62,644 nt of DNA, filler included, from Choristocarpus tenellus KU-1152 (GCA_964200185.2; 11 parts of 11 records of this genome joined end to end with filler, not necessarily neighbours in it); one strand, 5' to 3'; positions 7,163 to 59,133 are shown, counted from the first letter of the whole stretch. A program made the numbers and translations. Notes: generated by a model from the sequence alone, not told the origin.

Positions 7163-7200
7163 CCCCCTAACCCTAACCTGACCTAAACACCACCCTCCAC

Positions 7201-32380: not shown

Positions 32381-32399
32381 AGACAGGTCATGCATTTTA

Positions 32400-34084: not shown

Positions 34085-34140
<56 letters not shown>

Positions 34141-34452: not shown

Positions 34453-37400
34453 GTAGGACACCCCTTATGGTAGCCTGTGCAGCTGGCAATGCCGACATTG
34501 TCCGCTTGCTTGCTACAGAAGCCACACCACCAGCCAATCTTGGTGCCCGAGCTGTAGAGGGCTGGACCCCCCTCATGATCGCGTGTGGAGCTGGTGCACT
34601 AGAGGTGGTGAAGATACTTATTGCAGCTGGGGCTGGGCTGGCGGATACTGACACAACATTTGGATCTACACCTCTCATGTGGGCATGTGGAGGAGGGCAT
34701 CACAAAGTTGTCAGGTGAGCATCCTGGTGTTCACCAAGGAATGTGTGGGTATAAATGGGGGGGGCGGGACTGTAGGGTCACCTCATGAGAGATTGCACAG
34801 ACATTGTCACCAGTATATAAGATCACTATATATATATATATATATATATCATCAGTATTCAATTGCTTCTGTGTGCTGACTGCACGATACCTCCGAGAGG
34901 GTGCAGACCACAATAAGCAACAGCCCTGAAACATCAATGACATGCTTTATCAACAGCTCAAAGCTTGGCAGGTCATCAACATACAATTGTGGAATGAGTT
35001 CTCCTTGTGACATCATAATTGATCCTCTAGTTAAAGAAGTCACACACCCTCCTGCCCATCGCCATTGCCATATACTGTTGTACCATATGCCTGCAGGGTC
35101 GAAGTGTTGAAAAAAATGGAGATCAATTCAAGTTCATGCTTTCGATTTCACAAGGTTTTGCTATAGGAGAAGAAATGGATTGTTTCCTTGTGCTTGTGGG
35201 CAAGGAAGACAAAGCTCCTGTGTGGTATCCTTTGATGAGAACAAAGCAGTGATTCGAAGTATTTTTGTTGTATATATCCTTGACAAAGCTCTAAAACAAG
35301 ATTCGTGCGTGTTAACTTTCAATGCCCCACCAACACACTGTCACTACACACTGGTGTTGGAAGGTAGCAATACAAGGACCCCTTGCACAGCTCATTCTAT
35401 TTTGCGCCATAACTGATACCAAAGAACAATGCTAACCTTGGATGTTACAATTGTGCAAGGTGGAGGTGCTGGCCATTCAATATAATTAGTAGTGAGTGAA
35501 AGTATGTTAGGGTTAGGGTATGTTTTTTGCCCTGTTTGTCCGTTTAGGGCTTGGCTTCCCACGTTTTCTTAAATGACATTTTACCTACTCTGAAATGTTT
35601 TGGAGTAGGTGAAATGTACACGTTATGAAAAGGCGCGTCTGGTACAAGAATATTGACACTTGCTAACAAACACGATAGCCAAAATTACATCAAAATCGCG
35701 ACAATGGTTTTGGACCCCCAAACGGACGCGATTGTACCCTCTAAGATACTTTGACTCAGTCATTGTTGTTTGAAAGGGTGGTGGTATATCCTTTGCCTAA
35801 TAGAAAGGGAAGGTGTCGAGAGAAAGCACTTTTGGGAAAGGTTTTGCTGGTGAATCAATTTCATCCTCTGGCTGTAGCATGCCAATGCACTTCCCCCTGT
35901 CGAGTATACCAAGATTATGTAAACCTTGATCATCAGGTACAATGACCCGTAGCATCCTAGAGTGTGTGTCAAGTGTGAGTGAACGTATCTTAGGGTTAGG
36001 GTGCGAGTATTGCCCTGTTTGTCCATTTGGGGCATGCCTTCCCATGGGTTTTTTAAAGACATTTTTCTACTCTAAACTGTTTTGGAGCAGGTAAAATGTA
36101 TTCGTTATGAAAAGGTGTGTCCGAACAAGGACATTGACACTTCCTAACAAATACGATAGCCAAAATTACATCAAAATCGCAACATTGGATTTTGGCCCCA
36201 ATGAACGCAACTCTGCCCTCTAAGATACTTTGGGTCTGTCCATTCAGGGCCTGTGTGAGCCTGTAGTGATTTTCGTTTCGTCTGAGTGTACGTATCTTAT
36301 TAAGAGAGGGTGCGAGTTTCGCCCTGTTTGTCCATTTGGGGCTTGGCTTCCCATGTCTTTTCTAATGACATTTTCCTACTCCAAAATATTTCGGAGCAGG
36401 CAGAATATATACGTTATGAAATATTGTGTCCAGAATATGGATATTGACAACTTCCTAGCAAACATGATAGCCAAAATTACACCAAAATTACACCAAAATT
36501 ACACCAAAATCGCAAAATTGGATTCTAGCCCCCAAATGGATGCGGCTCTACCCTCTAAGATACTTTGACTCTAATTATTTTCTTATTTAGTCCCTAGCAA
36601 GTACAGGCACTCTCTATATCTCATTCAGTACTAGAAAGAGATTGATTCTCTCCCTTGGCTCAACCCCAACAAAAAAAAATCTTCACGTCATGAGCACAAC
36701 CAGCCCACCGTCAGGACATGCTTGACTCAACGCATGCCAAGATTTAAAGGAGTAGGGGGGGGGGGATTCATGGCAAAGGTTACTATTCTTTCAGCGTCAA
36801 GAAAATGGGCTCTTTCTATTGGTGCACAATGTTTTCATTCTCAATCTTTTTCATTTCTATTTTATATAAGAGACGGGCGTTTATTCTACCAATTGTATAA
36901 TTTGTACAAAAGTATTTAATAGGGTTAGGGAGTTTTGCCCTGTTTGTCCATTTGGGGCTTGGCTTCCCACAGGGTTTTTTAAAATGAAATTTTACCTAAT
37001 CTGAAATATTTCGGAGTATGTAAAATGTGTATGTTATGAAAGAGCATGTCCGGGACAAGGATATCTGACACTTCCCAACAAACACGTTAGCCAAAATCAA
37101 ATAAAAATTACATCAAAATACATCAAAAAACGCAACATTGGATTTTGACCCTCAAACGGACGCAGCTTTACCCTCTAAGATACTTTGAGTGAAAGTACCT
37201 TAGGGGGTACGAGTTTTTCCCTGTTTGTCCATTTGGGGCTTGGCTTCCCAAGGGTTTTTTATGACATTTTACCTGCTCCAAAATGTTTCGGAATAGGTTA
37301 AAGGTATACCTTATTAAAGGTGTGTCCGAAACATAGATATTGACATCTCCAGACAAACACGATAGCAAAAATTACATCAAAATTGCAACATTGGATTTTG

Positions 37401-38765
37401 ACCCCCAAATGGACGCAGCTCTACCCTCTGAAATACTTTGACTCTTTGGCTCAGTAATGGGCTTGGCTTGACCCTTTTTTTTTTCCCCCTTCCTGCCTTT
37501 TTTTTTTACATTTTTTTGGACTCCCACCGGTCCATTCGCAGACACATTGTTAAAGCATGTCCTCCTCATCTGCTGTGGAAAAAAAATAAGCAGAGATGGT
37601 GCCCCCTCATGATTGCCTGTGATGAAGGAAACTTTGAAAATGTGCGCATTCTGGTGAGGAAACCCCCCGGGTCGAAACCCTAACCCTAATTGAGACGAGA
37701 AAGAGAGAAGGGGAGTCGAATAGAGTACTCAGGACTGTTTTAATATATATATATATATATATTTGAGGGTCAGGGGGATTGGAGGACGAATATTGGAGTG
37801 GTGAAAGGGGAGGTGGCAAGCATGAGAGGCCTTACACAAGCAAACAAAAAATCCCTTTTGGGGGGGAGGATCGGAGTATTGTATTTCGAATCCCATTGGC
37901 GAGCACTAGACACACCTTCCTAAGATAAGCTAGAGACTATGAAAGAAGTGTACAAGAGGAAGGACTCTGCAGTGGATCCCTTCTCAAGCATTCTGTGAAC
38001 GTAGGGCACAAGTCAGCTACCACAGCTGTCTGCTGCACTATCGACTGGTGCAACAACTGCTCTTGCACAGGGAGACACACAGTTGTCCATCCCTACAGAA
38101 CCACAGGAGGAGATTGTTCCCGGCACACGTTTTCGTCTGCTAAAGGCTTGGTGTGTGAAAATTTAAATCCTTGATCGCTGTGGTAGAGGGTGATCTAGCT
38201 TGCAAGCTGAGGCATCCTTTGATTGGAGGGCAAAGTCGCTCAGTATCCTCTTTGGTTTATGGTTTCTACTTCTATTTTTTTCATCTCACCAGACTTCCTC
38301 TCCTATTTTGCCCTGATATTAAGGATATTGATAGTAAAATAGTGGAAGGGTTAAGGTTGACGATCTATCTACCTAGGACATGGGTCGACACTGGCAATGC
38401 ATAGGCTACCAGTGTTTCTATCTCATCATTCCTCTAAGTATAGTATAACAGTACCCCTGACAACAAAATCAACTTTTTACCATCAAGAAACGCGTATTCA
38501 TCAACCTCCTGGAAAACGAATCAGAGATGATATATATATATATATATAAGTTATACCGATCTCCCACTCAAACTTGTTGCTATCTCTACCCCTATTTACA
38601 GGTTGAGGAAGGTGCAGACCTCGGGGCATTCAATGCTGAAGGTCAAACTGCCCTAGATTTGTCTTCACGATCCAGTAACCACACCGTGGAGCTTCTCCTA
38701 CAGGGGAAGGGTGCTCGGAGGGGTCAAGACTTCTGGACCGCTGTGAAGTCTGGTGACACAATGGG
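34453..38765 (+). CDS. Ankyrin-repeat protein (partial, exons incomplete)
   Basis: Exon 34453-34714 (GRTPLMVACAAGNADIVRLL...GWTPLMIACGAGALEVVKILI...GSTPLMWAC), ~37594-37653 (WCPLMIACDEGNFENVRIL) and from 38602 (VEEGADLGAFNAEGQTALDL). Confidence 0.85.
35494..37452 (+). mobile_element. Cluster of five same-orientation family A MITEs (35494-35757, 35977-36236, 36284-36571, 36904-37452 with nested 37187-37444)
   Basis: Each copy has the family A interior and TIRs. TSDs AGT, TGT and TTT are visible. Confidence 0.92.
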
Positions 38766-39414
38766 GGTACCACCAACGCTGTCTGTAGAGAGGGGTGGGA
38801 GAGTCAAGATCGTCCAATGTTGTTTTCGTGACAAGGACCACCAGTGGGAATTGTCAGTAGAAGTACAAGGCGCAGATCACAGGAAATGGTAGTTTACCTA
38901 AGAAAGAAAGAGATGTTTTTTTGTAGTACTGGTTGTTGCAACCCTAGCCATCATCCCCTTCTTATCCTGCCTGACACCGATATATTGGGCTCTGATGGAC
39001 TTTTTTTGTGTCCCCTCAAAAGGTAGGTCGTGTTTGAGTGAACTCTGTGGAGGTGGGCGTATCATTGTCTGTTTGCATAAGGAGATGCTTTGAAGTAGTG
39101 CACATAGTAAATGTTGCTATATTGGTGTACACAAAGTAGTAGGTATTTATGTAGCAAAACTATGTATGTAGTACAGTAGATTAGTGATGGATCGGGACAT
39201 TGGAATGTGACCCAAAGTATCTTGGGGGGGGGAGGGNNNNNNNNNNNNNNNNNNNNNNNNNNNNNNNNNNNNNNNNNNNNTTAATTAATTAANNNNNNNN
39301 NNNNNNNNNNNNNNNNNNNNNNNNNNNNNNNNNNNNCCCATCCCCACCCTTCCCCCTCCTCCTCCCACTTTTTAAACATCTATGCCAACACCATGGGTTT
39401 CAAGTCCAACCCAG

Positions 39415-41666
39415 GGAGAACGGAAACAACTGGGTGGTTGAACGTTATGTGGAGAATCCCATGCTCATCGAGGGGTTCAAGTTTGACCTGCGCCTGTATG
39501 TCGCAGTGACCAGCTTCCAACCCTTGAGGTGATACTTCGAAATATCGTTGATTTCCTTCCCAACACGATGGCGTAAAAGCTATGGCACGAAATCGGGTTT
39601 GTTGTTCAGTGTACATGTCCTGATGGTAACAAATGTTAATGGCATTGGTTACGGCTTTTAGGGTAGTACCAAATCTCAGCCCTGCCTCATTGGAGTGCTG
39701 AGTCGTTTATTGCACTTGTGTGTCAGCAATGAAGGTACTTTGGTATCTACTTTTGGAGGGTGGAAAAGGTAGTATTATGTTGCTGCTACACTGGTAGATA
39801 TTCTCGTTACAACTATCCCTACAGAGTTTATTTTCACTTAATTGCAGGAGGGGTGAATGACTTATTAGGATGAAGCCGATCCCGATTGATCACCATTTTC
39901 ACAGTACAGAATCTATCCCAAACAAACTACTATAATAAAATTCTCGAACTAGTGCTTAGCTCGTATCTTGAGGTTAATTTTTTCATGCCTACCGTGGTGA
40001 AGAGTCCAAAATACGGTTCAGGCAAGGGTGCTGGTGTATTCAACACCCAGCAAGTCAACATCTGACAAAATAGAACCTCAAGGTCACTGTTCAAAGCTTT
40101 CAAACCATCACATTGCCACCAGTGGTTTAAATTGGGCCTTTTGAGGTTTTGGCCCACCAAACAAATCCGGCAAACCCCTGATTCCACCAAGTAGGAAATG
40201 CCAGCATGGTATGTTGTTACTTACCAGTAAAATAATAAGTAATAAGATATGTACTGCAAACTATCTCTTTCACAGTCATACCACACTGCTAACTAAACCT
40301 CAATCTTAAAAGCAATGGTTGCTGCAAATGTGAGTACTTTTGTATTAAGGCTGATTCAATACACTTGAGTTCAACCAAATCCCGTCAATAAATACTTCAA
40401 TCTGGAGTTCCGGTTGGCCCGAGTTTTCAAAAGGTTTGCGGGAAGGGTTTTGCCAATTGACCCTTCAAAAATCAATTGTAGGAGACAAAATGAAGTAAAA
40501 CGATATTATATGAGTCGAAAGATCTGTCGTTTATTTTGAAGATCAACTTACTGCCTTCTTTGTATTTTATCGCCTCTATGGGGATGGGGAGCATAAGTCG
40601 GGAGACGACGTGACTGACCCACCTCAGACAAACCGTGAACGCCACGACTTCTTGTGTGGGCACCTTCGATTCTGGAAGTTTCAGGAGTCGCCCATTCACA
40701 CTGTCACATGCAATCCAAAATTCCTGCCATCAACCTGGATAGTGCAGTAAAGTTCCCTGAGTCCCAGTCAGTTGCCGAGTAAGGTTTCATGCAAGGAAAA
40801 GACACTACTCCTCTTGCAATTGTTCTCTGGCTCAGAAATCGCGGGTGTCCACCACCACCCATGAGCACTTGAGTATTGCACGTTGTACAAGGTGATGAAG
40901 AAGGTAGAGAGGTTGGATCTTCTTGTCCTCATCAGTCTTACACTGCGTGGTAGTTCCTGTAGTTTGCTAACGCAACACACAACTGCTTTACTTCCCTTGG
41001 CAACTGCTTTTTTCGCTCGTTGGATACCCTAACCCTTGCTTTTTCTTGTGGAAAAAATCTAAATAAAGATCGATGGATTCTCCCTCTTACCCCACCCTTC
41101 GCCATCTCTGTTTGGTCTTTTTCTACCTCAACAGGGTGTACCTTCACAAGGAGGGCTTGTGCCGTCTTGCCACTGAACCGTACAGCCGGGACCCTCAAAC
41201 GTTTTCAAACCGATTCGTCCACCTCACTAACTACAGCATCAATAAGCATAACAAACGTTTAGCAAAGTCCAGGGCAGGGCTTGCCAGTGAGGAAGAGCAT
41301 ACCGAAAAAATGAATGAGAGCTCGATGAGCCATTGTGAGTGTAGCGAAGCAGTTGCAGTAGACAGTAGTCCGAAAGACACACACAGCAACAGGGGAGACA
41401 AAGAGCAAAGGTTCAGTGCGATGGAAGATTCACAAGAGTCATGTTTGGCATCTAGTCGCAGCAGTGAAGTGAAGGAGGTCGAAAAAGTGGTCAGGGGAGG
41501 GGGGGAAGATGACCAAAGGAGACTAGTAGTGGGTCCAGAATCACGCTCAAAGTGGAGCCTTCACACTCTCCACCAGAGGTTCGTAGCCATGGGGGTAGAC
41601 ACCACTGCGCTATGGAAGGATATCCACAGCGTGATCATCAAGACCCTAATCAGTATTGAGGCACAG
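39415..41666 (+). CDS. Tubulin polyglutamylase, TTLL4/TTLL5-like (partial)
   Basis: Exon 39415-39528 ([32 protein letters not shown]) splices in phase to 41135-41666 ([16 protein letters not shown]...[10 protein letters not shown]...KWSL...[17 protein letters not shown]). These are canonical TTL-family ATP-grasp motifs. Confidence 0.92.
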
Positions 41667-41840
41667 GTGAATCAAAGTCAGATTAAAAAAAAAACGAGTG
41701 GTACAATCAAAAGAAACAAAAAAAAGTAGCAGCATGGAGGAGGTGTGCAGGACGATTGTATCAAATTAACTGTGTCATATACTGGTTCTCTGTTGGTGGA
41801 AGTGCTTTTTTCTACTATTATACTATTTCCTACCAATATA

Positions 41841-41911
41841 GAAAGCGTGTTTGTCCGTTGTTATACTATGCATACGGCAATAACGGTATAACGACAGACA
41901 AACATGCTTTC
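41841..41911. repeat. Small foldback element (~26-bp inverted arms)
   Basis: GAAAGCGTGTTTGTCCGTTGTTATAC...GTATAACGACAGACAAACATGCTTTC. One arm is also present at ~13003-13035. Confidence 0.7.
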
Positions 41912-43577
41912 CACACCACTCACCTTTGGTTATAAAGACCGTTTTTGTTGTCAAAATGACTGAATACGTAGAATTATGAACTGGAGCTGATTACAATCAG
42001 TTACATCTGATTGACACAATTAACTGATAACCGAGTCTTTTTGGATCAACCAATCGGTTATTCCATTCGCGTTCTGTACGAGCATACACTCCTCCGAAAG
42101 TCACTCGTGTTTTTATCTCTCGTACACATTTACAATGTTACCGCACAAACAATTTCAACTCCAGGGGGATCCCTCACAATTCGGGGGAGGCCCATTTTCT
42201 CACAGCTATGATGCTCGCCGACTGTGTACTGTGTGCTATGACTCAGATTATTAGATATGATTAACCCGCGAGAGCTGAATCGATTGTGATAACAAATCTT
42301 CTCTGTTCACAACTCTATGAGTACCTTGCCATCACTGGAGGGGTGGTGAGCTTGTCTTGGCATAATCAGTCCTTTGTTGTGTGTGCTTTTGTTGCAGTGA
42401 CTTAACGTGATCACATTCCTGCTCCTTTGAAGCATGTTGGGGTTAGGGTTTCTAACCCTCCAGCAAAACATGTTGAAAGGAAATCGAAACTGCTCTAGTT
42501 TGGAAATTGCTTCATATCCGTTGCAGCATTGAGAATTGAATGAAGCTGTGGATCTGAAATGTGGTGTTCATTGAAACCTAAATATTCTGGAATGCTTTTG
42601 AGAGGATGATTAAAAGGGAAGGAATACGCTAGCCTGGCCATTGCCCGTGCCTTAAATCAAGTGTGTGAACTCCAGGTCCAGAACGCATTAGGAGTTACAT
42701 CTCTGTGTGTATGTAGGGTGAAGCATAGATTAAGCTGACACTAATCGATTTTGCGCTGATAGCATATGTTCTGCAGCTAGGATCAAACTCTCTCCTAAAT
42801 CATAGCGGAATGTGATCAGGTTTTGTACTCTGGGGCAATCATGGGAGAGTACATTCTGATTATTTGCTCCTTGTTGTTCTGTGAATTGTTTGACAGTGAC
42901 AATAATTTTTCAATCAAACTTAAGAGATCTTTTCAGGGATATTGGATTGAATGTGCCTAACATGTGTTACTCTCCTAGGGATGCCCGCCCCGATCTGCAG
43001 AGTAATTGTAGACTAACTACTGTAGGTTTTGTCACCTTGGCAGTTTTTTGCAAACACTATAGATTCTGCTGAGTGTGTAATTTGAACTCCATTGTTTTTT
43101 TGAAATATGAGATGGCCTTTTCATTTACCCTCTGAACTCTGCAAGGAAATATTCACCTTGGGGACAAGGTGTATCTACTACTGTTGACAAGGGATAGGGT
43201 TAAGGCTACAGTTACCTTTTCCTTCTGGAATACATGATAGGAGATGCGTTAGACATGGATATATATCATGGGCAGCTAGTTCAAAAGGAAGACCACCTTA
43301 CTCGATCAACACTTACGGCATGTTATGTCATGCTTCTTTGCCAAAACAACAGGTATCATCGGCAGTGGATATGCTTGTCCTGCAAAGAGGGACCTGTTTT
43401 GAGGTGTGTATCCAAGCGCGTGACTGTGCTTGTGTGGGTCCTGGAAGAAATTTATGGTTACTTCTAGACTCTAAGCGGTGGATAGTTCCAGCATTGGTCA
43501 AACATATCCACCCTTGCAAATGACCTGCTGACAAGCCAGATGACTTGGGCAACAACGAACATGCAAAAAAGGAAATA

Positions 43578-43833
43578 GAGCCAAAGTATCTTAGAGGGTA
43601 GAACCACGTCTATTTGGGGTCAAAATCCAATGTTGCGATTTTGATGGAATTTTGGTTATTGTGTTTGTTGGAAGTGTCAATATCTATGTTCCGGACACAA
43701 CTTTCATAACATACACACGTTACTTACTCCTAAACATTTTGTAATAGGACAATGTAATAAAATAACCCAATGAAATCCAAGCCCCAAATGGATAAACAGG
43801 GCAAAACTCGTACCCTCTAAGATACTTTCACTC
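43578..43833 (-). mobile_element. MITE family A, 4-bp TSD AATA
   Basis: GAG...CTC termini; AATA on both flanks. Confidence 0.93.
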
Positions 43834-46442
43834 AATAGTCACATCCCACCCAACCCAGGTTCTGCAAATTTTAAGCTCTGAAAGGTGAGTAAAAAAAGGT
43901 TGGCGCACATTGGTGAGCAATTCGCGAAGTCTGTCACCCTGCTGCTAGGGACGTCGAAATTCCGAGAGTCGCCCTATTATCGCAAATATCGGAAATAGAC
44001 ACGAAAACGGCGCTCCACAACATCTTGGTTAGAATTTCCGATTCGACTTCACAGCGAAATGAAATGAGGAGGCTATGGGGTATTGTTAGAACACGATTTC
44101 AACACTGTCTCAAACAAAATCAACAGCGAGGGCGTAAGGTTAGAGAACTTGCCTGAGAGTGATACCATCTAAGAGGGGGTTGTTGTTGAGTTTGAAGGAT
44201 GCCTATGACTTACCTCGAGGTGTATGTGTTTTGAGCACTGCAGAGGGTCGCGGCTAGTCTTCTTCTACTTCCATATCCTTCTAAGGATGGCTAGTTGCAG
44301 TTCAGGCATGGACATGATGAATATTGCACAATGTTAAACGGGAAATCCAAAGGGCAAAGATCAACCTCCTCTAAAATGTTTCATTCTGAACTCGTCTAAG
44401 AATCTTATGTAGAGTATCTTCCTTGGCACAGTGTCTATATAATAGGGTATGCAAAGCTCACACGAATAGCACACACTATTAACTAGGTAGTATGTATACA
44501 ATTCATTCAAAGGTTCTCTCCTGTCTAAAAATCTTCAGGATACTGTCATGTGACCATCTTATGTAGATTTATCACCGCAATCTCCACTGACTGACAATCT
44601 CAGGCAGTAGGCACCTTCAAACCACCATACAGACAGCAAAATGCGCTTCAGCATCTTGTGTCTTCTACTCACTACAGTTTGTTTAAAACGATGTCCTCAA
44701 CGATTTCTTTTGCAATTCCTTCAAGTATAGTGGATAGTTTCCAATACACTCTAGAGTATTTAGTAAAAACTCTTCTCTCAAGATTTTCGACACTGACATT
44801 CATTCGTTCCCGCCTACCCCCATGCAAACCTTGCGTCTTTGGGCTGCACTGCCTCCTGCACCTCTCTTCTTTGCCATCTGTGGAGTATGTTGTGAACCCA
44901 TCCCCATACCCGTCCTATTTTCTTCTAAAAAGTGATAGGGACTCGGCTTTGTATTGTTCGTTCACGCTTTTGCACATGAATCTCAACATTAAACCTCTAT
45001 GGGCAATACGAGTCTATTTATACCCTTTTGAGTGCTTGGGGCTTTTCAAAACTTCAACATTACACCTCATTCCCACGCTAGAAATCCAGCTAACCCCCCC
45101 CTGAAGGTGCTGTGACCGTAGAAGAGCACACAGACGTTGGTCCAAATAACTGCAAAAAACGCCCTTCATATTGCTAAAAGCATAGATACCAGAAGGCAGT
45201 CAGGACCCAGATATCCAACAACACCCCCATCTAGGATAGGTTAGCTCTAACCCTAACCCTATCCCAAGGCTATAGAATAAACTTCTTTCACTCAACCGCA
45301 AATAGATGCACACCTTAATTCTCACATTCTTAGTGTACCAAGAAAATTCTCAGCGACAGTAGTACTCTTGTACTAACTTCAACATTGACACGGTGATGGG
45401 AGACTTGATTTGTGATTGAGGACTGTTTCACCCCCCCCCCCCCTTGCAACAGAAGCAGCAGACACAACCCTTCCCCCACGTACTTTGACAAGGCCCACAT
45501 TTTTTGTTTTTGGAATATCTCCCACACTGTTAGATGTTTGGGTTTGATGTCTTGGTGGATGACAAGCAGATGCCGCACCTAATGGAGGTGAACTTTGCTC
45601 CCTCCCTGAACATCGACACCAATCTAGACTTTCAGGTTAAGTCGAAGGTATGGTGCACACTGTGTACAATCTGAATAGGATTTGCATGTGGTGGTGTTGG
45701 GCGTTTCTCAAATACTTCGGAGTAATAAGCATTGGGTATATCTGCACATTTAAAGTGAATTATTTCTGCAGCTTAGAATATATCTTCAACATACGTACTG
45801 AGTCAAAGTAAACGAGAGGGTTGCCTTTTAAGGATGCTGATGAATATGCTAATTTCGAATTTTTGTTGAAATATATACAGGGACTTCACTGGATTCTGTT
45901 GAATTTTTCCAAGCAATAGAGAAATCAACAATCTCAAGTTTATCTTAGCACTTTTATCCATAGGCATAAGGGTGAATTGCAAAAGATGAAAAATATGGCT
46001 TAAAATGCAAAACGACTGGAAGCTGGGTACCGCTCGTTTACTTTGGCTCACTATGTACTCTTATCAGGTAGTGTGGCAACTGAACCTTAGTGCTACCTGG
46101 GGTCATATGTCATCTACAACGTCTAAACTATGCTCGACTTCCATGTCACGGGCGTTAGATAGGGGACTGTGTAGTGTTGTCACCTTGTCCAAGATCCTTG
46201 TCTTTTTCATTGAAGAGCACCAATTCAAGAGTATTCCTGAGCAATACATATATTGTTTAATCCTGGTGCTAGGTATTTATTGCCTTTTCCCACTCTGTTA
46301 GTGGGTCAAAGTATCTTGGGGGGGGGGGGTGGTTTGTGAGGGNNNNNNNNNNNNNNNNNNNNNNNNNNNNNNNNNNNNNNNNNNNNTTAATTAATTAANN
46401 NNNNNNNNNNNNNNNNNNNNNNNNNNNNNNNNNNNNNNNNNN

Positions 46443-47269: not shown

Positions 47270-48097
47270 CAATGACAGTGTACCTTGATAGAACGAGAGT
47301 TTGGTCAATTAAGGCAGAACACATCCCAGGAAAGGAGAATGTGTTGGCAGATGAAATATCTAGGTGGGATAAGGACAAGATTCAAACAAAAATCGCATTA
47401 CTCTTTCAACCCTCTTGTCCTCATGTTAGTTGGTAGGAGCAATCCCCGTGAGTCATGAAAGGATGGCACTGTGTTCGAGGTCGAATTCTGTACACAGACG
47501 GACCTAAGAATCTGGCTTGATCCAAGTAGTTGGGAGGTGGGGGTGGGGAAGTCCCGTGTAGAATTTATGCGCCTTTGTTCTGGGAGTAAGGGTGATAACG
47601 TTGTTGGAATAAGGAGTAAGATGTTTGCAAATCCAATACTTCCACAAACACTTCTTGGATTTCTCATTGCCTACAAACCTTTTTCTTTCTTTCATCTGCA
47701 TCAAAAGGTATAGGAAGAAGTCATGCAAAGCTTGGGACTCAGCCTAGTGTTAGAACACTAATGGAATGTGTGGAGAATCTGGGACAGCGTGTGAAGTGAT
47801 TGCGCTCAGAAGGGGAATCAACAAGGTTGGGGTTAGGTTTCACTTTCTCCTTACATAGAGCACCAGGGTTGTGGGCTTGTGATGGAGGAGGGGGGTACAT
47901 TGGGATTTTTCGGGAAGGAGAGGAGATGTATGTAGTGTGTGGAAAACGGGTCTTGAGGTTGGACTGGAAAAATAGAGCAATTGGCAAACAAGGTAGGGGT
48001 AATATTCTCGGGGTCGAAAGGGGTTTCAAGATGGGAAGGGTGCGTTGAAAAGCTTAGTGCATCAAAGAGTCGTCGCCCAAAGGCGCTGGTTGAGTTA
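47270..48097 (+). mobile_element. DIRS/Ngaro-type tyrosine-recombinase retrotransposon remnant
   Basis: RNase H tail WSIKAEHIPGKENVLADEISRW, followed by degraded YR motifs LGLGFTFSLHRAPGLW (cf. F..LLRxxEL) and ANKVGVIFSGSKG (cf. RxSKxDQ). Confidence 0.65.
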
Positions 48098-48282
48098 GAT
48101 CCAAAGCAACTGGGGGGGGGGGGGGGGGGGGGTCTACACCAGGGTGTCCATTCGGGCCATAACCAGGAAAGGTTTACTTACATTATCCATCCCGACATAT
48201 GCAACCAAATCACCCAAAAATCGCCACATTAACAATTTGCCCCAAATGGTCAGCCACCACACACCCCCAGATACTTTAAGCC
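48098..48282 (+). mobile_element. MITE family B, 3-bp TSD TTA
   Basis: TIR G....AAAG...TGGGG / CCCCAGATACTTTAAGCC; TTA on both flanks. Homologous to 60321-60501 and 53883-54329. Confidence 0.8.
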
Positions 48283-48379
48283 TTATGTCGTGAGCATACA
48301 CTAAATATTATTATCCGCTGGGCCTTTGTCTTAGCCATCAATAATCTCTGACATAAGACCAAGACCAACTCATCATACC

Positions 48380-48555
48380 GAGCCAAAGTATCTTAGAGGG
48401 TAGAGTCGTGTCCATTTGGGGTCAAAATCCAAGGTTGCGATTTTGATGTAATTTGGCTATCGTGTTTGTTAAGAAGTGCNNNNNNNNNACATGGGAAGCC
48501 AAGCCCCAAATGGACAAACAGGGCAAAACTCGTACCCTCTAAGATACTTTCACTC
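48380..48555 (-). mobile_element. MITE family A (with assembly gap), 4-bp TSD TACC
   Basis: Both TIRs present; TACC on both flanks. Confidence 0.9.
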
Positions 48556-48559
48556 TACC

Positions 48560-49305
48560 ATCACTATGTGTACGTTACTACTGTCTTGTACTGAACTAGA
48601 GATAAACGTACATGAAACTACGTTATATACTTACATCAGCACACACAATGTAAGGATAACACTAGGTTATTGGACATCCTCCCCTTGCTGAAAACAAGTA
48701 TTGACTCTTGGACAATCACACCAAAAGAACAAACAAAAAATACACACATGTTATCACTCTACATGTTCATCAAAAACTTTGCATGTTGTCTAAAACTCTG
48801 ACAGTCAAATTCTTGGTCGACACATCTGCCCTCTGGTTGCTGTACCAACAAAAATGACAAGAATATCTCCTTTTCTAGCTAAGTCCCTCAAAAATGGTGT
48901 CGGACTTCAATGTGCTTTGTTCTAGTAGAGCTTGTGGCTTTTCGTACTAGTTTGCATGCACCATGGTTGTCCTCAAACATATCAACCCAACATCTATGGA
49001 ACTGTGGCTGGAAAAACTCAAAAACACTTTGCAAGAAAAGCAATTTCTGTGCCACACTGCTAAGGGCTATATACTCACTCTCCGTAGAGGACAGAACTAC
49101 CATCTTTTGTACCTTTGACATCCAAGATATTGCTCCTCCTGTAACCTTATTGTTTATCCAGTCACTGATCTACGATCATTGCAATCTCCACAGCATAAGC
49201 ACAAACAGCATCAGCATAATATGCGCTCAACTCACACTCAGTATCAAAACCACCAAAACTCAATCCAACACTGGGACACGATTTTAAATATGCTAGAATG
49301 CACTT
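48560..49305 (-). mobile_element. Copia RNase H, PPT and 3' LTR start (same family as 29490-30990)
   Basis: SKVQKMVVLSSTESEYIALSSVA...STRTKHIEVRHHF; PPT AAGGGGAGGA (48686-48677) followed by TG at 48676. Confidence 0.9.
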
Positions 49306-49524
49306 AAGGCTCAAAGTATCTGGGAGGGGGTGGCGGCTGTCCATTTTGGGTCAATTTTTTCATGTNNNNNNNNNNNNNNNNNNNNNNNNNNNNNNNNNNN
49401 NNNNNNNNNTTAATTAATTAANNNNNNNNNNNNNNNNNNNNNNNNNNNNNNNNNNNNNNNNNNNNCCCCACCCCCCCCTCCCCCCCTTCGGCACAACAAA
49501 AAAAAAAGTTATTTTCCCGAAACG

Positions 49525-49557
<33 letters not shown>

Positions 49558-50279
49558 AGATACTTTAACCCAGCATAGTCATGGACTTTTGAGGAGGTGG
49601 TCAGGAGAGCTGATCTGCCAGTGGCTCATTATGCATAATGCAATTTGATCTTAAGGTCAAACCAGAGAGATTGGTTGCAATCACTTTTGTTGGCGAATTA
49701 TATTCGTCATGAACCGATGGTGTAGGTGTTGTGTAAGTGGGGGTGAAGTTGATGCGTGTTTATAATAGTATGTATTCTTTGGACGATTGTGACCATGTTT
49801 GTGTACACTTATAAAAAATAAGTTGTCCAAGTAATGGAGGGATGAAGTCGCAATATAGACATTGGAGTCAATACCTCGTAGGAAGTAGTGTTCACCTATC
49901 AGATTGTATCAACTACGATATTATTGAAGGCTTCTCTCTTTTGACCCGCTCTACCAGTTACGGTTGTACTTGACGGATTGCTGGCATTGAAATGTCCAAC
50001 AGGGCCTCCTACCTGGCACTCTGATTTTGTCCTGTGGAAGGATATCATTTATCAGAGTGCACACGCCGCCACAGTTGGTAGTCACTAAGTGTGTTTTACG
50101 TAGGATTGTAATACATCATAACTGTTCATTTGAATATTAGTAGGGTGGTGATAAAGTATTGTACATACGTGAAAGTACTAAAACCTGTGTAACCATCGAA
50201 TATGGGTTATGATCGGTGCGATGTCATCTGTGGCACTTGCTCACGAACTTCAGATTACACCCGCAGAAGTAGAAGCGGC

Positions 50280-53173
50280 ATGTATTGGCATGCAGCTACG
50301 ATATATTGGCTATTGCTAGCAGGAAGTGCCCTCGGGGAAGAAGAGGCGCAACACGGATTCGGGGGAGAACGACACCGGAAAGGTCTCGGATTCCGATGGC
50401 GCATGCTGGATAACATGGGGGCCCCTTACAGCGAGAAGGAAACTATAAGTCCAGAAGCTCACAGCATCATGCACACTCAAATGTTGCAGGTCAACGAGCA
50501 GGGCTATGTGTGCTCACTTGTACACATTTCTACAGATATTGTTTGCAACCCTGGAGATCTCCACCTCCCTCAGAGATACCCCAAGAATCTTGATGACCTG
50601 CGACAAACGTTGCAACGAATAAATATGATGAGCTGGATCCAGGGATTTCTTTGCGAGGATGGAGTTGGTAGATGTATGGAGGAAGCTACAGATGTCCTTG
50701 CGGGCCAGATTGGAGATTTGATTGCTACTTCCATCTTCCGCAACCCCGAGGGTGACGACCTGACGGAGACCTACGCACTATCTCCCCAAGAGGTGAGAGC
50801 ATGTCAGTAGGTAGGGTCAGGGAGTGTTGAAGCTGATTCTCACCGCTCTATAGCAAGATGCATTAGAAACACAATGAATTGCACCCAATTGATAGTATTT
50901 CCCACCCTGCACTTGTTGTCCACGCCCCTCTGTATCTTCACATGCATTCGATGCAGGTTCTGTGGCCACGTGTACTTTCAATGTGCCTTCTGTGGAGGTC
51001 GATCTTTCCGGGATGCTACTCTCGTACTCTCTCATCATTGACAGACCAAAATATCAAACGTTTGCATGACCTTCTTCCCTTCTTAGCCCAAATTGACGGA
51101 GTCAACCTAGACCACCACAGTCTCCTTACCCGCCTGGTAACACCTACCAGACCAGACCCTGGCATATCCATAGTTCATCCAGTGGAAGGCTCGGTTCTCC
51201 ATGGCCCGTCAACTGGTTTGGTTGTAGAGATTACCACTGAAAATGCTCTGGGGACTCTTCTAGAACATGAGTGGCTCGAAGTGCACGCAGTCATTGACGG
51301 AAGTGTTGAACCAACAGCCAAGGTAATAATGGTGACTCTCGATCCTGACATACCAGTTGTCACATTAGCTGCAGTTATTCATCCCTCTGAATATCCATCT
51401 GTTTGTGCCGATGGCCGAATCCCTGACCTCACCGCTCGAGATCTGACTCCACGGTCTCGCGAGATTACGCAACATCACCTCATGTGCTCTACGATGGGGA
51501 TTCCTGTACACACAATTCGTGCAGACATGATGCACTGTCAGTCTCTAGTCAATGCAAATCACACTGGGGAGGGTATCACATTGCCTGCAGCAGCAAAGAG
51601 GGGGTTATCAGCATCATCACACAATCACTTTGCTAGTGGACAAGAGAGAAGGGGGGGGGACGCTTCAAGGACTTGCATGAGAGTGGCTCATACCAAGACA
51701 ATATCCTTCCTTCATGTGCACAACGGGGCTAGCGGCTTGGCCTCCCACGGTCTCCCCTCCAACACCGATCAACCAATTGAAAGGGAAGGAAGACAGGAAG
51801 ACATACCTGAGAGACAAGTGAACACAACCCCAGTGAATGTCTTCTCCCTTGAGTTTTTTGTGCGGGGTATTGAGAAGATTCGCGAGAAAATGATGCTCAC
51901 GACCTATCTTTCAAACGGAGAGATATGGACAAGGGCAGCACGCCTCTGCCATAACTCGTTTGGTTGGAGGGCTGGGGTAAACGTGGCATCAGGGTGTTGC
52001 ATGGCGCTGGTGGAGCAAGTGATATCTGCGTGGAAAAAAAGTGTGTACTTTTTTGAGGCAAACAAGCTGAATTTGCATGTACAGGCAGTACTTGGAGCTG
52101 GCATTGACATAGAAGGAAATACTGGAAGCAATCCAGAAAAGGTAGTGCCATCTTCCGTAGAAGAGGAACAAATGGCATTACAGGCTTCTAACCATTTTCC
52201 CACTAAATCCTCTCACCATGGATGGTATACTCACAAAAATTTGCCAACAATGACACACACCTAAACAGCATATATGTATATAGACTTGGAAAGGGACATG
52301 TTTGAGAAGGAGGACTTGATTCATCCAGTGGGGCCATCTCACATTAAGCTAATGGAATGGCTTTCCCCCTTCAACGATGCAAGGCAATGCAGAACCCTCC
52401 TTCTCACAGAACAATCCCTCTCCCCTCTATTATTCAGTTTTGCAACATTTTTTTTCACAGATCTCTTCATCTGTGAAAAGTTAATAACCGTTGACCTCAA
52501 TATAGGGCAGAATAATTTGGGCCCTTATATGGGTAATCCATGGGTGGAATGGGCCACTCTATAATTCAGGTTACCCTGACAACACTAAGTTGGGTAGACT
52601 TGGTCAGCCTTGATTCAGGTGGCCCACAGCTGGCACTGAACCAAGGAAATGTCCAGAAAAATATAATTTTTTCCAATAGCTGAGGGGTTTGAAGGAGGGA
52701 AGGGGGGGAGGTACACTAGTGGAAGGCTCCAGAGCACAAAGAAATTGCAAATTTCCGTGCTCAATGGAAGGGCAAAAGGTTTAGAGTGCTTGGAAATCCG
52801 CTCAAAATTGCACACATCGATTTTTGTTCTGTCTACCTGACGGAGAACAAAATACACCAAGCAATAGGTTCTGAGTGAAAGTATCTTAGAGGGTACGAGT
52901 TTTGCCCTGTTTGCCCATTAGGGGCTTGACTTCCCTTAGGGTTTTTTTTACACTTTCCCACTCCGAAATATTTTGGAGCATATAAGATATTTACACTGTG
53001 AAAAGGTGTGTCCGGAACAAGAATATTGACACCTCCTAACAAACACGATAGCCAAAATTACATCAAAATCGCAACATTGGATTTTGGCCCCCAAATGGAC
53101 GCGGCTCTACCCTCTAAGATACTTTGACTCTTCTGTTGCTATATGTTTTGTCTTGTGAATCAATCTTTCTTGT

Positions 53174-53216
<43 letters not shown>

Positions 53217-53520
53217 CCTCTCCTGAATCAAATACGACAAAGTTGTTCTCATCCAGCGGTGAAAACAGAGGATTTGTCCCCTTACATCTGAAATGAGTCA
53301 CTCATACATAATGGGTCTCCACACACAGGTGGTGGACATGTCTCATGCTGCGAGGGAGGTACTGGGAGGAGAGGATACTTACGGCGTGGTGTGTGAGATA
53401 GGATTCAACTCTGGGCACTCGACTCTAAACTGGTTGCTAAGCACTGGCCCCAATGTGAAGGTGATTGCCTTTGACCTGGGGTATCACCCCTATGTCCCTC
53501 TCGCCCGGGACTACCTGCAG
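50280..53520 (+). CDS. Signal-peptide-bearing protein with a C-terminal class I SAM-dependent methyltransferase domain (Methyltransf_24-like), partial
   Basis: In-phase exons 50280-50792 (MYWHAATIYWLLLAGSALGEE, signal-like), 50957-52141 and 53329-53520 (VVCEIGFNSGHSTLNWLLS...KVIAFDLG). The last exon carries the EIGFNxGHS SAM-binding motif I and the motif II acidic residue. Confidence 0.8.
52873..53130 (+). mobile_element. MITE family A, 4-bp TSD TTCT (best consensus-like copy)
   Basis: GAGTGAAAGTATCTTAGAGGGTA...TACCCTCTAAGATACTTTGACTC; TTCT on both flanks. Confidence 0.95.
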
Positions 53521-53701
53521 GTGAGGCTCTTGATTTCCACTACTCCGGGTCATGTACAATGCTACCGTACTTGACCAACTCCCTGATCGCAATGAACTGC
53601 ACCATCCCATGGGTTGTATAGAGGTCCCAAGCAGAGACTGCTTGCACTTGACGGAGGGTTTGTTGGAGGGCTGTGAAATGGGCACTGCCCAAAATTGAGA
53701 A

Positions 53702-53753
<52 letters not shown>

Positions 53754-53882
53754 GAAAGTAAATAGGCAAGCCAGATCATCTCNNNNNNNNNNNNNNNNNN
53801 NNNNNNNNNNNNNNNNNNNNNNNNNNTTAATTAATTAANNNNNNNNNNNNNNNNNNNNNNNNNNNNNNNNNNNNNNNNNNNN

Positions 53883-54329
53883 GGGGGGTCTACACGGGGG
53901 CGTCTACACCAGGGTGTCCATTCGGGCCCTGACCAGGCCAAGTGAACTTACTCTATCCATCCGACACATGCAACCAGACCACCCAAAAATCATCACATGG
54001 AAAAAACGGCCCCAAATGGACAAGAGTGAAAGTATCTTAGAGGGTACGAGTTTTGCCCTTTTTGTCCATTTGGGGATTGGCTTCCCATGGGTTCTTTTTT
54101 TTATGATATTTTCCTACTCCAATATGTTTAGGAGTAGGTATAGTGTGTGTGTTATGAAAAAGATATGTGCGGAACATAGATATTGACACTTAACCCTAAC
54201 CCTAACAAACACGATAGCAAAAATTGCATCAATATCGCAACATGGATTGTGGCTCCCAAATGGACGCGGCTCTACCCTCTAAGATACTTTGGCTCACAAC
54301 CGCCACCCCCCCCCCAGACACTTTGAGTT
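53883..54329 (+). mobile_element. Family B MITE interrupted by a family A MITE (54024-54295, TSD ACAA)
   Basis: The B sequence resumes exactly after the A copy, with ACAA duplicated. Confidence 0.88.
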
Positions 54330-54608
54330 TTTTATTGTGGGCCAATGTATCCTATCGTCCAACAAAACAGCCAGATGTCCACATCAGTGACTGACAGGCT
54401 GCTGGTTTACGTGTCGTACACTTTCAATGTGATTTATTGCCTATGTAGATGTGTCTATAACATTTCTGTGTGCGTGTATTTTTAAGTGTATGTATGTGAA
54501 GGTGTGGGTGCTTGTCCCTCTCTCACTAGGAAGGTGTAATGGCGCAGCCTACATTGATATGACTGAGGTTCAAGATCCCTGGTTGGTTCAGCGGTTTCTA
54601 AAGATCAC

Positions 54609-57600
54609 CTCCAGCCTGTGAAGTTGATCTTCTTGGGCATTCTCCAGCTCACCCAACCGTGCCCGATGAGAAGTAGCTTCGCTGGAGAGCTTGGCATTGG
54701 CCTGGCTAAGCTCCACAATACGCTAGGGGTCGTGGTTAGCAGAGGGCATGTGGACACGGATTTTTCGTGTGAGGGATTTCTGTAAATCAACTGGATATCT
54801 GGTATGCCCAAAGTGGTATGTCTTAGCAAGGCTTGTGACACCAATTCCCTCTTGACATCATGCCTTTTAATTTCGTACACATAAGATATATACATATATA
54901 TATATATTTTTCTCAGAACACGCTAAAGTCATCATCAAAAGTGATTTCTATCAGGAGTGAGGTTTTATATATATTGAAATACCTGGAGGATTGAAAATAA
55001 GGAGGTGCTTTTACCAGTTGAATGTCCCCCTCACTGAAGTGGCCAGTTGGATATAGTTGGATACAGTTGTCTACTCACGCAACACACACTATCAACCTCA
55101 GACCTACCCATGCCCCTAACCAAGACCTTCCCCAGCTGTATATTTAGATCTGACCTCTGACTTTCCCCAGCACCAGTTTTCCATTGTACGAAAATACTTC
55201 ATATCCATGATCTCAATAACAAAGAGGGATCCCACAGATGAAGAAAATGTTCAGGGGAACTTTGCGAGAGGAAAAACTGTTCCAAAGCAACGAGAAAACC
55301 ATGCAACCCTTAAATCTCAAAATCTTACATCATGTGGGGTTCAAAGAGCTGGGTATGATAGAAGCAATGAGAAACGGAGAGGATTCCTCCCTGTGTACTC
55401 ATGTATGGTGTGTAAGAGACAGGGTCTTGGAATAGTGGCATTACCTGTGCCGTCTCCTTGTCCCTTGCCTTGGTGGAATCTGCATTCCGCTCCAGAATAC
55501 GCTGCTGATCGCTGAGTTCTGACCTGGCACAACAAAAAAAATGGACACACACACACACACACACAAATACACACATCACATCCATGTAGGTCTGTGGTTT
55601 AGGTACAAAATTGGGAGCACTACCAAACAGATGGAGCAGTTTGGTAGAAACGCACCTAAAATATCTTAGCCTAGCCTAGCCCTTCATTCTGTTCCCCAAA
55701 TGCTCTAATACCTGAGGAATAGCTTTCATCTATTCAGTTCAAAGATCTATGTTTATGAAATTTAAGTGCCATCAACTATAATATGCTACATTGCACTGAT
55801 ATTTGCAATGTTGTGGCTGCCTAGGACATGGCATGGAAAGCAAGTGGCGGGGAGGCACAGTGTACTGACTCTCAGGAAGAAAGGACTGGCTCACGCCCCT
55901 TTCCGAATAGTGAATACCTTAGAGCATTTATCTTTTCATCCTGCATTTCTGTTGTGTGTTTTGCATCGTCCATCATCTCCATCGCCTTCATTTGATGCAC
56001 AAGAAGTTCGGAGGATAAGATGGCCCAATGCATACACAAGTTTGGGGAGGAGATACGATTGAGGTACTGATGAGGTCATCATGGCACACCCTCCTTTGGA
56101 TTTATTTACTGGGTAGAATATCGTGGATGCATTGTTGTGTGTGGATGGGGGTCGATCAAGCAAAGGGGGTCCCAAATAACTGGAGACATTCAGAAGCTCC
56201 TATCAGCAATCATTTTTTTTTATTTTTTAGTCAAAGTATCTTAGAGGGTAGAGCCCCGTCTGTTTGGGGACCAAAATCCAATGTTGCAATTTTGATATAA
56301 TTTTGGCAATCATGTTTGTTAGGAGATGTCAATATCCTTGTTCCAGACATATAAATGATACCTACTCCAAAACGTATACATTGTATAAGTCCGGGAATTA
56401 TAACAAATGTCTCTCTTATCATCAGAAGAACACATGCCTTTTCAGCATATTTTTCCGACATGTCACTCTTATCATTTCCTTCAATCTCCCATTCCCCCCC
56501 ATTTCCTATTATCTCTTTTCTCATTGCCCACGGAAAAGGCCAGGTTAACAAGCATTCCACGTACTAGTTCCCCAGAGAACAGTACGAATGCATACAAATA
56601 TATATAAACCATAGGGCACAACACTGCTGTAGTTGTTACATGTTCACTATTTCCTCATCAGCGCCTGTCATCACCAATCCCGACCTTTCTTGTAGATCTT
56701 CCCATCTCCTTGCCTATAGAGGTCCATAATTCCAACACCACCTTAGATAAATCGCCCAGAACAGTGTGATGCCCCCTCTGTGCCTTCACTCTAACAACAA
56801 AGTAACACAACACACACCTTACCTTCTTTTCTCGACCCAGAGCTGCATCCCGCTCAGCTCCTGCCTCCCTGGCCTTCCTCTCTGAGTCTCCTCTCAGATC
56901 TGCCTCCCTTCCAGCAGTCGCCTTTGCCTCCTTCAGAGAACGTTTTCGAACAGGAGTGAACCAAAGTAAAGGGTTAGGGTATCCAGAGGGGTATTTTGAG
57001 GATGCCAGCAAATCTGTGCAAAATTTCAGCTTCTTTTTTTAATGGATAAAGTATATGTTCCGAATCTTGTCAAAGATCTTTTCAAACAACATAGAAAACT
57101 CAACCCTCTCGAGTCAAACTTAGCACTAAATCCATAGAAATAGGGGTGAAATGCAAAAGATTGAAAACCTGGCTCAAAAAATGCGAGACGCCCAAAATGT
57201 GGGTACCTCTCGTTTACCCTGGTTCAGTCACACAAGTGTTGTTGTGATGTGTTAGGAAATAGAACATGGAGAGAGCAGGAAATCACTCATTCCTCTGGAG
57301 GGCACAGGGGAAGAACATTGCCGTGTGCCCCTACTGATAGGTATATTAAGGACCGAAGTCAGGATAGGTACAAGGATGTGCATGATATCGCTTTGGATTT
57401 CTTAGTTTGGGTTAGTTAGGAGATAACAGTGTATTACCTCCTTATCACTACTCATGTTTTCATTATTGCATAGTTAGTTATCTAACCCTAACCCTAACTC
57501 TAAGTATGTGATGGTGTATATTCATACTATTGCTGCAATAGACCTATTAGGAGCATTGGGTACCAAGAGGAGGGGAGAGTCTTCTTTCAGCTGAGTCTGG

Positions 57601-59133
57601 TATATACCCAAATATGTTTCCATGAAATGTCTTACGGACCCTGAACTTCTGTAATTTCAGACGGGCAAATGTGATTAATGTTTTTAATTTAGAATGAAAG
57701 TATCTTAGTGGGTAAGAGTTTTTCCCTGTTTGTCCATTTGGGGCTTGACTTCCTACGGGTTTTTTGATAACAATTTCCTACTCCAAAATGTTTTGAAGTA
57801 GGTAAAATGTGTATGTTAGTAAAAGGTGTGTCTGGAGCAAGGATAGTTGAAACTTCCTAACAAACACGATAGCCAAAATTACATCGAAATTGGAACATTG
57901 GATCTTTGCCCCCAAATGGAAGTGGCTCTACCCTAACCCTAAGATACATTCGACTCTTATTTTTCTTCCAAGCAAAGCTTTAGGAGGTTATGTACCTAGT
58001 TCTTTGGGATATGAATGAGTAGCTCCTCGAAGCAAAATTTGAGGATGAGCAGAAATATAGAAATTGGAAATTGCTTCAATAAAAAAAAACATATTGGTCG
58101 CAATGGGGATGGTCATGTACCATTTTAATTTTTCTTTGAGTGGAAAGTTCTTAAAAGCAATTGAGGAAGGTTTCAGTGGGACAACAAGAATCATACAGTC
58201 ATGTTATAATTCAAAAGTCAATCACTCCTCCATCCTCGAAGTCATTGTGCTGTGGAGTGGGAGTATAGGACCTTCATTCCATCAAACCTTTATTTGCTTA
58301 ACCCTCTCCTGGACATCAATAACCAGGTCATGCTTCTCCCCCTCCAGGAGAGACAGCTAAGGACAGCAACAGATGGAGGGGGGAGATATGGTCAAAGGAC
58401 AGAGGTGAGGTGCATTGGATATGTACAGTCATGTAGCTGGCAAAACCGCAGATGGAAGAAGGGGGTGTATAGGTGGGGGAGCTCGGCAAGTGAGTTGAAT
58501 GAGGATAGGATCATTTAGGCTAGAGTAGCTACTATTCAAAATTTATTCAAAGCATCTTAAAAATGGATGCCAATGCTGATAAGGGGCCTCTCTAGAACTG
58601 GTTTCTGATTTGCACATTTATGTACCTACATCCTCCCAAGTCAATCCGATGACAGAACCCCCCCCCCACAGGATCTCTTCTTCTACATCCACAGAGTCCT
58701 TGTTGGGGGTACCTGAATTTGGGTAGTGAAAATGGGGTTCTAGGTACCACACCAATAAGCCCCATAACAAAACAAAATGCCCAAAATCCACCCCCTTTTG
58801 AATACCTTGGCTCCTGCGACCTTGACATCTACAATCAGCAATCAACTATTACTTGTATTCATCTCTCGCTGGCCCCAAAATGCAAAATCCCAATCCTAGT
58901 GTGCTCAATATTGTTGCTCCCCCCCCCCTAGCACAGCACAGTTGCTTGTATTGTAACAGTGTCACTTCCTTCTCTCATTACCAAAACTACCTCCCTCCAT
59001 TTACAAGACCGATTGAGTTTCTGTACAGGAGGGATTACGTATCACCTCTCCTCTGAGTCGCTCCACCTCCCTCCGGTTTGTATCTGCTTCGGAAGAGGCC
59101 CGCTTTAGTGCTTCAGATTTAACAACAGCTTCC
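54609..59133 (-). CDS. Long coiled-coil protein (partial)
   Basis: In-phase GT-AG exons 59133-59046, 58356-58288, 56930-56823, 55985-55918, 55523-55445 and 54722-54609. They encode E/R/K/A-rich heptads (e.g. RIVELSQANAKLSSEATSHRARLGELE). Confidence 0.75.
56228..56385 (-). mobile_element. MITE family A, truncated
   Basis: One TIR and about half of the interior. Confidence 0.8.
57692..57956 (+). mobile_element. MITE family A, 3-bp TSD TTA, telomeric insert in the right TIR
   Basis: Right TIR reads CTACCCTAACCCTAAGATAC instead of CTACCCTCTAAGATAC. Confidence 0.88.

Follow-up and report, generated by a model that had tools for sequence, protein, structure and literature searches.

The DNA stretch analysed here (the window: 62,644 nt, of which 61,745 are read bases) is eukaryotic draft sequence with a G+C content of ca. 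43% and ten linker-filled gaps, and all the counts given below refer to this one 62-kb window of one genotype. It contains 17 perfect tracts of the telomeric hexamer TTAGGG of at least 11 nt, of which five lie in copies of a MITE (miniature inverted-repeat transposable element), designated MITE-A, one in a second MITE family, B, and 11 outside any recognised repeat. The tracts exceed chance expectation, are bounded in length, postdate the consensus state of the MITE, sit on telomere-like seeds, arose several times, and are accompanied by end-joining scars. On balance, they are probably telomere-repeat patches, formed by non-processive telomerase addition at breaks and subsequent rejoining at microhomology. 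Their motif is identical to the telomere repeat reported for Ectocarpus (bioRxiv 2024.05.11.593484), which also provides the best named protein matches of an exon in the window; TTAGGG is reported for other ochrophytes studied as well, the telomeres of xanthophytes being of the TTTAGGG type (PMC3622300).

The tracts are 11 to 17 nt long; none of 10 nt and none longer than 17 nt was found, and there is no excess of runs of 7–9 nt. Within the MITEs, telomeric runs of 7–10 nt are likewise not in excess (one seen, 0.72 expected). Nine other hexamer classes that share the composition of TTAGGG yielded zero to two tracts each and the plant-type TTTAGGG none; Markov models predict 0.03–0.3 tracts (orders 1–4) or 1.5 tracts (order 5), and an 11-mer has 10 matches in the window and none in 100 shuffles. 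The overall density is ca. 275 tracts per Mb, i.e., about one per 4,000 bases, and 205 per Mb outside MITE-A, the five tracts in MITE-A comparing with 0.9 expected from its length (P 0.0015). The first-pass annotation of this DNA, made from MITE copies, had called telomeric insertion pervasive, and the window in fact holds more tracts than it saw. Seven tracts lie on the + strand and ten on the − strand, on account of which an origin as a subtelomeric variant array was rejected.

Eight of the 11 tracts outside the MITEs are situated in unannotated DNA. Those at 584–597 (+ strand), 1900–1913 (−), 7165–7178 (−, adjoining an assembly gap), and 37676–37689 (−) are 14 nt long, and that at 23135–23150 (−) is 16 nt long. 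A degenerate hexamer array at 7463–7497 (+) ends in a perfect 12-nt tract (7486–7497), an 11-nt tract at 7909–7919 (−) forms the end of a degenerate stretch (7878–7919), and the longest tract, of 17 nt, at 57482–57498 (−), is followed by a 5-nt run of the opposite orientation. The remaining three are found in single-copy DNA, in introns of a tubulin-tyrosine-ligase-like (TTLL) gene (39425–45650, +; exon matches near 39425–39538, 41103–41678, 43344–43406, and 45534–45650): an 11-nt tract at 41026–41036 (−) and two head-to-head pairs, one at 42440–42459 (+), with a G-run at 42440–42450 and then an 8-nt C-run, the other at 45232–45261 (−), with a 15-nt tract (45247–45261) facing a degenerate opposite run. 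All these 11 tracts are presumably of insertional origin. A role of the intronic CTAAC as a branch point was considered and rejected, as both orientations occur in introns of one gene, the next exon match being ca. 100, 290, and more than 800 nt away. The degenerate hexamer arrays at 7463–7497 and 25976–26055 (TAAGGG, CCCTTA, CCCCTG) may be telomeric patches that expanded and decayed into microsatellites.

In the MITEs, the state preceding the insertion can be read from other copies. MITE-A is a 259-bp element with 23-bp terminal inverted repeats (TIRs) and GAG...CTC ends, and its copies are 83–95% identical to the consensus; the earlier count of 13 copies holds, 12 of them having both ends and one being partial. 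In the copies at 35494–35757 and 35977–36236 (both +), alignment places the insert GGTT at 35511–35514 and 35994–35997, respectively, between TTAG and AGGGT of the left TIR (site A), within tracts 35506–35519 and 35990–36002. Copy 57692–57956 (+) has the same change on the other strand, AACC at 57935–57938 of the right TIR (tract 57930–57942), its own left TIR being without an insert. The insert of copy 54024–54295 (+) is internal: the nonanucleotide AACCCTAAC at 54192–54200, placed at the seed CCTAAC with the G-strand on − (tract 54191–54206). All four changes had been described in the first-pass annotation as additions in exact telomere register, and the alignments confirm exact in-register TTAGGG tracts in each. 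A similar change had been seen at 36919, in copy 36902–37186 (+), whose left end is damaged; an 11-nt tract is indeed present there (36920–36930), but it results from a different and messier replacement with an ambiguous junction, which can be read as AGGGT extended by TAGGG and deprived of ACG or, alternatively, as a site-A insert that has decayed.

No tract is present in the copies at 17072–17333 (+), 25525–25782 (−), and 43578–43833 (−), nor in the read part of copy 48380–48555 (−), which has a 9-N gap, and there is no insert in copy 37187–37444 (+), nested in the right TIR of copy 36902, which it interrupts. On the fourth seed of the element (see below), copy 52873–53130 (+) has a run of 8 nt, TTAGGGTT, which is not significant (P 0.09), and copy 56229–56392 (−) comprises the right end only. 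Family B adds a sixth case of a tract with a known before state. In its copy at 56954–57229 (+), CGAG of the left TIR is replaced by GGGTT, rejoined at AGGGT with a 1-nt 5′ seed, giving the tract 56970–56980; the right arm of this copy and both arms of the tract-free copy at 45797–46052 (+) read AAACGAGAGG or a one-letter variant of it and represent the before state. Paralogous empty states are available in this way for 6 of the 17 tracts in the window.

The 11 fully read MITE-A copies hold 13 insertions of at least 2 nt, five telomeric and eight of other kinds (three duplications of 11–22 nt, two insertions in homopolymers, and three others). Only 8 of 200,000 random insertions into the MITE-A consensus, and one of its 5,681 single tandem duplications, give a tract of at least 11 nt, and 1,500 simulations of matched decay gave a mean of 0.0013 such tracts in the 11 copies, which contain five. 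As the nulls of random insertion, duplication, and decay are all tiny, the telomeric inserts exceed chance.

The sites of insertion follow the telomere-like seeds. The MITE-A consensus has exactly four seeds of at least 5 nt, and all five tracts lie on three of them; two seeds are located in the TIRs, 13–22 nt inside the element ends. In-register bases at the insert number 4–6 nt in four of the six cases, ca. 5 nt in the ambiguous copy 36902, and, in family B, 1 nt. The ends of an element are where cut-and-paste transposases make their cuts. Transposase cuts at the TIRs, suggested earlier as a possible trigger, do not account for this pattern: since all MITE-A tracts are on seeds, 13–22 nt inside the ends or internal, the seeds rather than end cuts explain the sites, and 11 of the 17 tracts lie outside recognised MITEs altogether. 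The MITEs are best read as passive recorders of patching and not as its cause. There may be a break hotspot at the TIR site, because copy 36284–36571 (+), which also has a 22-nt tandem duplication, carries there, one base away from site A, a non-telomeric 6-nt fold-back insert (36300–36305, palindrome TCTTA-T-TAAGA). Insertion of MITE-A copies into each other's TIRs, seen for copy 37187 in 36902 and at contig joints, is likewise in line with a hotspot.

Patching of this kind would begin with a double-strand break near a telomere-like seed, at which non-processive telomerase would extend the G-strand 3′ end by one or two repeats, 4–9 nt of which would be retained. The new tail would then pair with matching bases downstream (AGGGT, for instance), and flap trimming and ligation would follow. 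Seed, addition, and microhomology together would make up the tracts of 11–17 nt, as 4 + 4 + 5 at site A, 6 + 9 + 1 in copy 54024, and 1 + 5 + 5 in family B. If both broken ends were extended, a G-run would end up facing a C-run, which is the arrangement at 42440 and 45247. Among the 17 tracts, opposite-strand runs of 8, 6, 5, and 4 nt are found 3′ of the G-run, and none exceeding 3 nt before it (P ca. 0.004, post hoc); as they occur only after the 3′ end of the G-run, this is the order expected if both broken 3′ ends gain G-strand. A local route to site A in one step is lacking, since no single duplication yields the insert, a template of 7 nt is not found within 60 nt, and the window does not contain the AG-deletion intermediate. 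Scars of break repair at the insert sites comprise the fold-back insert in copy 36284 and small deletions in copy 36902 and family B. The first-pass annotation had ascribed the inserts to telomerase; a seed-dependent, telomere-templated, recurrent micro-insertion is supported, while the identity of the polymerase we only infer, and the polarity of the seeds is mixed.

Several observations weigh against patching by telomerase and are given here together with the explanations that they favour. Neither a telomerase gene nor a telomerase RNA nor a telomere of the host was seen in the window, which has no Rfam match, and a telomerase RNA survey names no brown alga in the text available (PMC8287931). 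Eleven of the 17 tracts have no paralogue in the window, hence no before state. Contigs of the sequencing runs over 39345–45760 provided no empty allele at the three intronic tracts and no polymorphism; the eight pieces of run X2 listed over this region differ by one letter in all, so X2 likely represents the same genotype and the comparison of reads is uninformative on polymorphism. In raw numbers, non-telomeric insertions in MITE-A are at least as frequent as telomeric ones (eight to five), which the first-pass annotation had itself regarded as an argument to the contrary, but a telomeric product is hardly ever expected by chance. Finally, an I-SceI screen in mammalian cells, as cited in PMC7215372, produced no telomeric insert in ca. 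350,000 junctions.

It is possible, if less than probable, that the tracts were templated by telomeres without telomerase, a repair polymerase of the polymerase-theta type or another reverse transcriptase having briefly used telomeric DNA or TERRA as its template at a break, with the seed on either side. The mixed seed polarity is in line with this: a long seed lies 5′ of the G-strand insert in copy 54024 and probably in 36902, the longest match at site A is 3′ of it (5 nt against 4), and family B, with 5 nt 3′ and only 1 nt of 5′ seed, is equally explained by a C-strand-primed copy. The phases in which the 17 tracts start and end cover all six registers, so that no template boundary is visible; the fold-back insert in copy 36284 indicates that synthesis-dependent end joining is active at the same site, and TERRA-templated insertion has been proposed as an alternative for mammals by Santagostino et al. 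(2020, PMC7215372). The restriction of opposite runs to the 3′ side of the G-run, however, is what G-strand extension predicts, and a long telomeric template could presumably leave a longer tail than the 17 nt at which the tracts end.

Rather unlikely is an origin by slippage and fold-back from the seeds, with the tracts being kept by selection or by a telomere-repeat-binding protein, as regulatory telo boxes. The insert of copy 54024 is a 1.5-fold copy of its own seed and the 45247 tract resembles a one-unit duplication, so both may be products of slippage, and tandem duplications of 11–22 nt are present in these MITEs. Moreover, decayed tracts are few (18 loci at 13 nt with at most one mismatch), and telo boxes are reported to be functional in plants (PMC3022908). 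Nevertheless, other hexamers show no such duplication, site A would require a deletion plus a duplication, the intermediate of which is missing, and the change in family B is a replacement. The nine tracts of known context lie, in both orientations, in old MITE copies and in mid-intron, not at promoters or at branch-point distance.

Still less probable is a rare process, in which transposition, or gene conversion among MITE copies, multiplied a single ancestral event or a few of them. The three site-A products are identical, and the three left-TIR carriers are neighbours within 1.5 kb (P 0.045, or 0.01 with copy 36284), their single origin being permitted by 52% of bootstrap trees; copy 35977 and its neighbour 36284 have two TIR-proximal changes in common. 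This explanation leaves copy 54024, family B, and the 11 non-MITE tracts unaccounted for, and the MITE-A tree, used to examine the independence of the inserts, is star-shaped, with all nine inner branches open and no clade of insert carriers. Shared changes are not in excess either: when CpG sites, homopolymers, and TIRs were masked (124 columns left), 110 of 165 trios shared at least as many as the site-A trio, and 70 of 165 at least as many as the left-TIR trio. Copies 35494 and 36902 appeared at first as a sister pair, which was rejected when their 10 shared changes fell to two under the same masking; a 1-nt indel is common to 35494 and the empty copy 37187 and absent from 35977. As the carriers form no clade and their target duplications, like their flanks, differ, the telomeric inserts appear to represent four to six independent events, the count of which may drop to four because conversion between neighbouring copies is possible. 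The four clean MITE-A tracts are all perfect, which has a P of 0.002 at whole-copy divergence and of 0.054 at the local rate if they are as old as the copies, and this weakly suggests that they are younger than the MITE-A transposition burst.

An assembly or sequencing artefact, in favour of which the gapped draft, the tract at 7165 adjoining a gap, and the five MITE-A tracts known from the assembly alone could be cited, is hardly credible, as the read check, which covered the three intronic tracts in 39345–45760, found them at 41026, 42440, and 45247 in spanning contigs of run X1 (which may be the source sample), and that at 41026 in X2 too, with no letter differing and no gap.

Compared with known systems, the mechanism of telomerase patching is less novel than the first-pass annotation implied, having been described in print for mammals, where in-register seeds were noted and a repeat consensus supplied the before state (PMC2246262), and put forward for the telo boxes of plants (PMC3022908). 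Nergadze et al. (2007, PMC2246262) report for mammalian short interstitial telomeric sequences (ITS) that the repeats were added in one step with small junction deletions, that in-register bases were present at the break in 75–80% of loci, and that for 16 primate loci the before state could be derived from the consensus of a repeat; the tracts described here share all these features. The ITS catalogues, with 229 human and 142 horse loci, comprise loci of four or more units (PMC7215372), whereas the inserts here are of 4–9 nt and the tracts of 11–17 nt, below that length threshold; because the thresholds differ, the density of ca. 275 per Mb and those of the catalogues are not directly comparable. 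Mammalian ITS also include loci flanked by pieces of telomerase RNA sequence (TERC-ITS). Patching of breaks is likely far more frequent here than in mammals.

Gaspin et al. (2010, PMC3022908) proposed that plant telo boxes arose when a non-processive telomerase extended a free 3′ end by one unit and error-prone repair followed. Very short telomere motifs are thus already on record there as being in pervasive excess across the genome, the telo-box 8-mer having a density of 155 per Mb in Arabidopsis; the corresponding 8-mers number 18–21 per 61.7 kb per rotation in the window. Telo boxes are described as functional elements of 1.1–1.3 units concentrated in 5′ untranslated regions and promoters, accompanied by site II or TEF elements and bound by TRB proteins, unlike the tracts in the window, where the excess starts only at 11 nt (ca. 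two units) and concerns, as far as the DNA is annotated, introns and dead MITEs, with before states. In human cells, telomerase is reported to add repeats at Cas9 breaks, mostly at microhomology to the repeat (bioRxiv 10.1101/2022.10.31.514589), but the outcome there is a new telomere, while here the chromosome was rejoined and a few bases were left. Further related literature includes PMC6387519, PMC11406999, PMC10294476, PMC5753468, PMC4455052, bioRxiv 2024.02.19.579948, PMC5388398, and PMC8537989. No report of such tracts in brown algae was found in the open-access literature, supplements being outside the scope of the search; the telomere-motif distribution in Ectocarpus, shown according to its legend in Figure S3 of bioRxiv 2024.05.11.593484, may bear on novelty. 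What is new are the micro-scale of the inserts, their density, their share of insertions, and the lineage, the type of mechanism being known.

MITE-A is very abundant in the genome, as follows from its 13 copies in 62 kb and from the contigs matching copy 52873 at 80%, of which there are 37,886 in run X1 and 26,069 in X2, with one read in X3 (summed depth is no copy number). The contigs aligned to this copy showed no GGTT row, but are uninformative in this respect, as the five indel rows are all confined to the middle, where depth is low, and the ends have none; differences may also have gone uncounted. Elsewhere, metagenomes gave one chance 25-nt match in GC-rich DNA, and viral contigs and prokaryote genomes gave none. 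Among the 11 copies examined, target-site duplications (TSDs) are of 4 bp in four, of 3 bp in five, and absent in two. The 4-bp TSDs belong to copies 43578, 48380, 52873, and 54024, and all three site-A carriers (35494, 35977, and 57692) have 3-bp ones, the numbers being too small to test.

We take MITE-A, as a lead only, to be a putative Sola2-type non-autonomous DNA transposon. Sola2 elements, described by Bao and co-workers in 2009, reportedly have termini with 5′-GAG ends and a TIR, and a 4-bp TSD. The GAG...CTC ends, the 23-bp TIR, and the 4-bp TSD of some copies resemble these, whereas the 3-bp TSD or its absence in the others does not. No transposase was found among the 13 open reading frames scanned of 68 listed for the window. 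Copies of MITE-A are also nested in each other's right TIR (36902–37452) and form head-to-tail dimers, and such joints occur in dozens of X1 contigs. A third MITE-like family, G-rich inside and with the end motif AAAGTATCT in common, adjoins most assembly gaps and is probably their cause (24870–24891, 29090–29114, 34085–34160, 39210–39236, 46300–46342, 48112–48290, 49305–49365, 53883–54022, 59348–59415, and 60319–60487).

The exon of the TTLL gene used for the protein search has an EukProt entry as its top match, the best named matches being three Ectocarpus proteins (31–43% identity, E 1e-25 to 1e-26), which makes a brown-algal or closely related host likely. Ankyrin-repeat exons of a host gene, at 34365–34718 (Pfam match) and 38461–38892, flank the five-copy MITE cluster. 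Two long open frames in 50193–52264 (205 and 465 amino acids) have no Pfam match, and no homologue of the longer one (50870–52261) was found. By eye, the translation also reveals decayed remnants of a Copia-like reverse transcriptase/RNase H, without a Pfam match, at 30515–30981 and 48830–49304 and at 15347–16174, two copies being 83% alike. The window also comprises an imperfect 330-bp palindrome with internal repeats (13329–13789; related arm 16247–16371) and a further dispersed repeat family in inverted orientation, devoid of telomeric tracts (32399–32666, 33463–33731, and 18970–19125).

Insertion by telomerase at internal breaks is an old question, which has rested on a few hundred mammalian loci and the plant telo-box model. 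A genome with patches at intervals of a few kilobases, within a MITE of very high copy number whose consensus supplies the before state, would make it a problem of counting seed side, register, and length, and genome editing, reported for Ectocarpus, makes a TERT test feasible in the lineage. We put forward, tentatively, that telomerase may serve here as a routine patch polymerase of end joining and a main source of multi-base insertions (5 of the 13 in MITE copies); it would then have left ca. 100,000 two-repeat scars if the density in the window holds over ca. 300 Mb, and tens of thousands of MITE copies would constitute a before-and-after record for reading the template of the brown-algal telomerase RNA. 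Confirmation would mean that telomerase acts as a major insertion mutagen in a lineage of multicellular organisms and is likely to give rise to telo-box-like sites and hexamer microsatellites.

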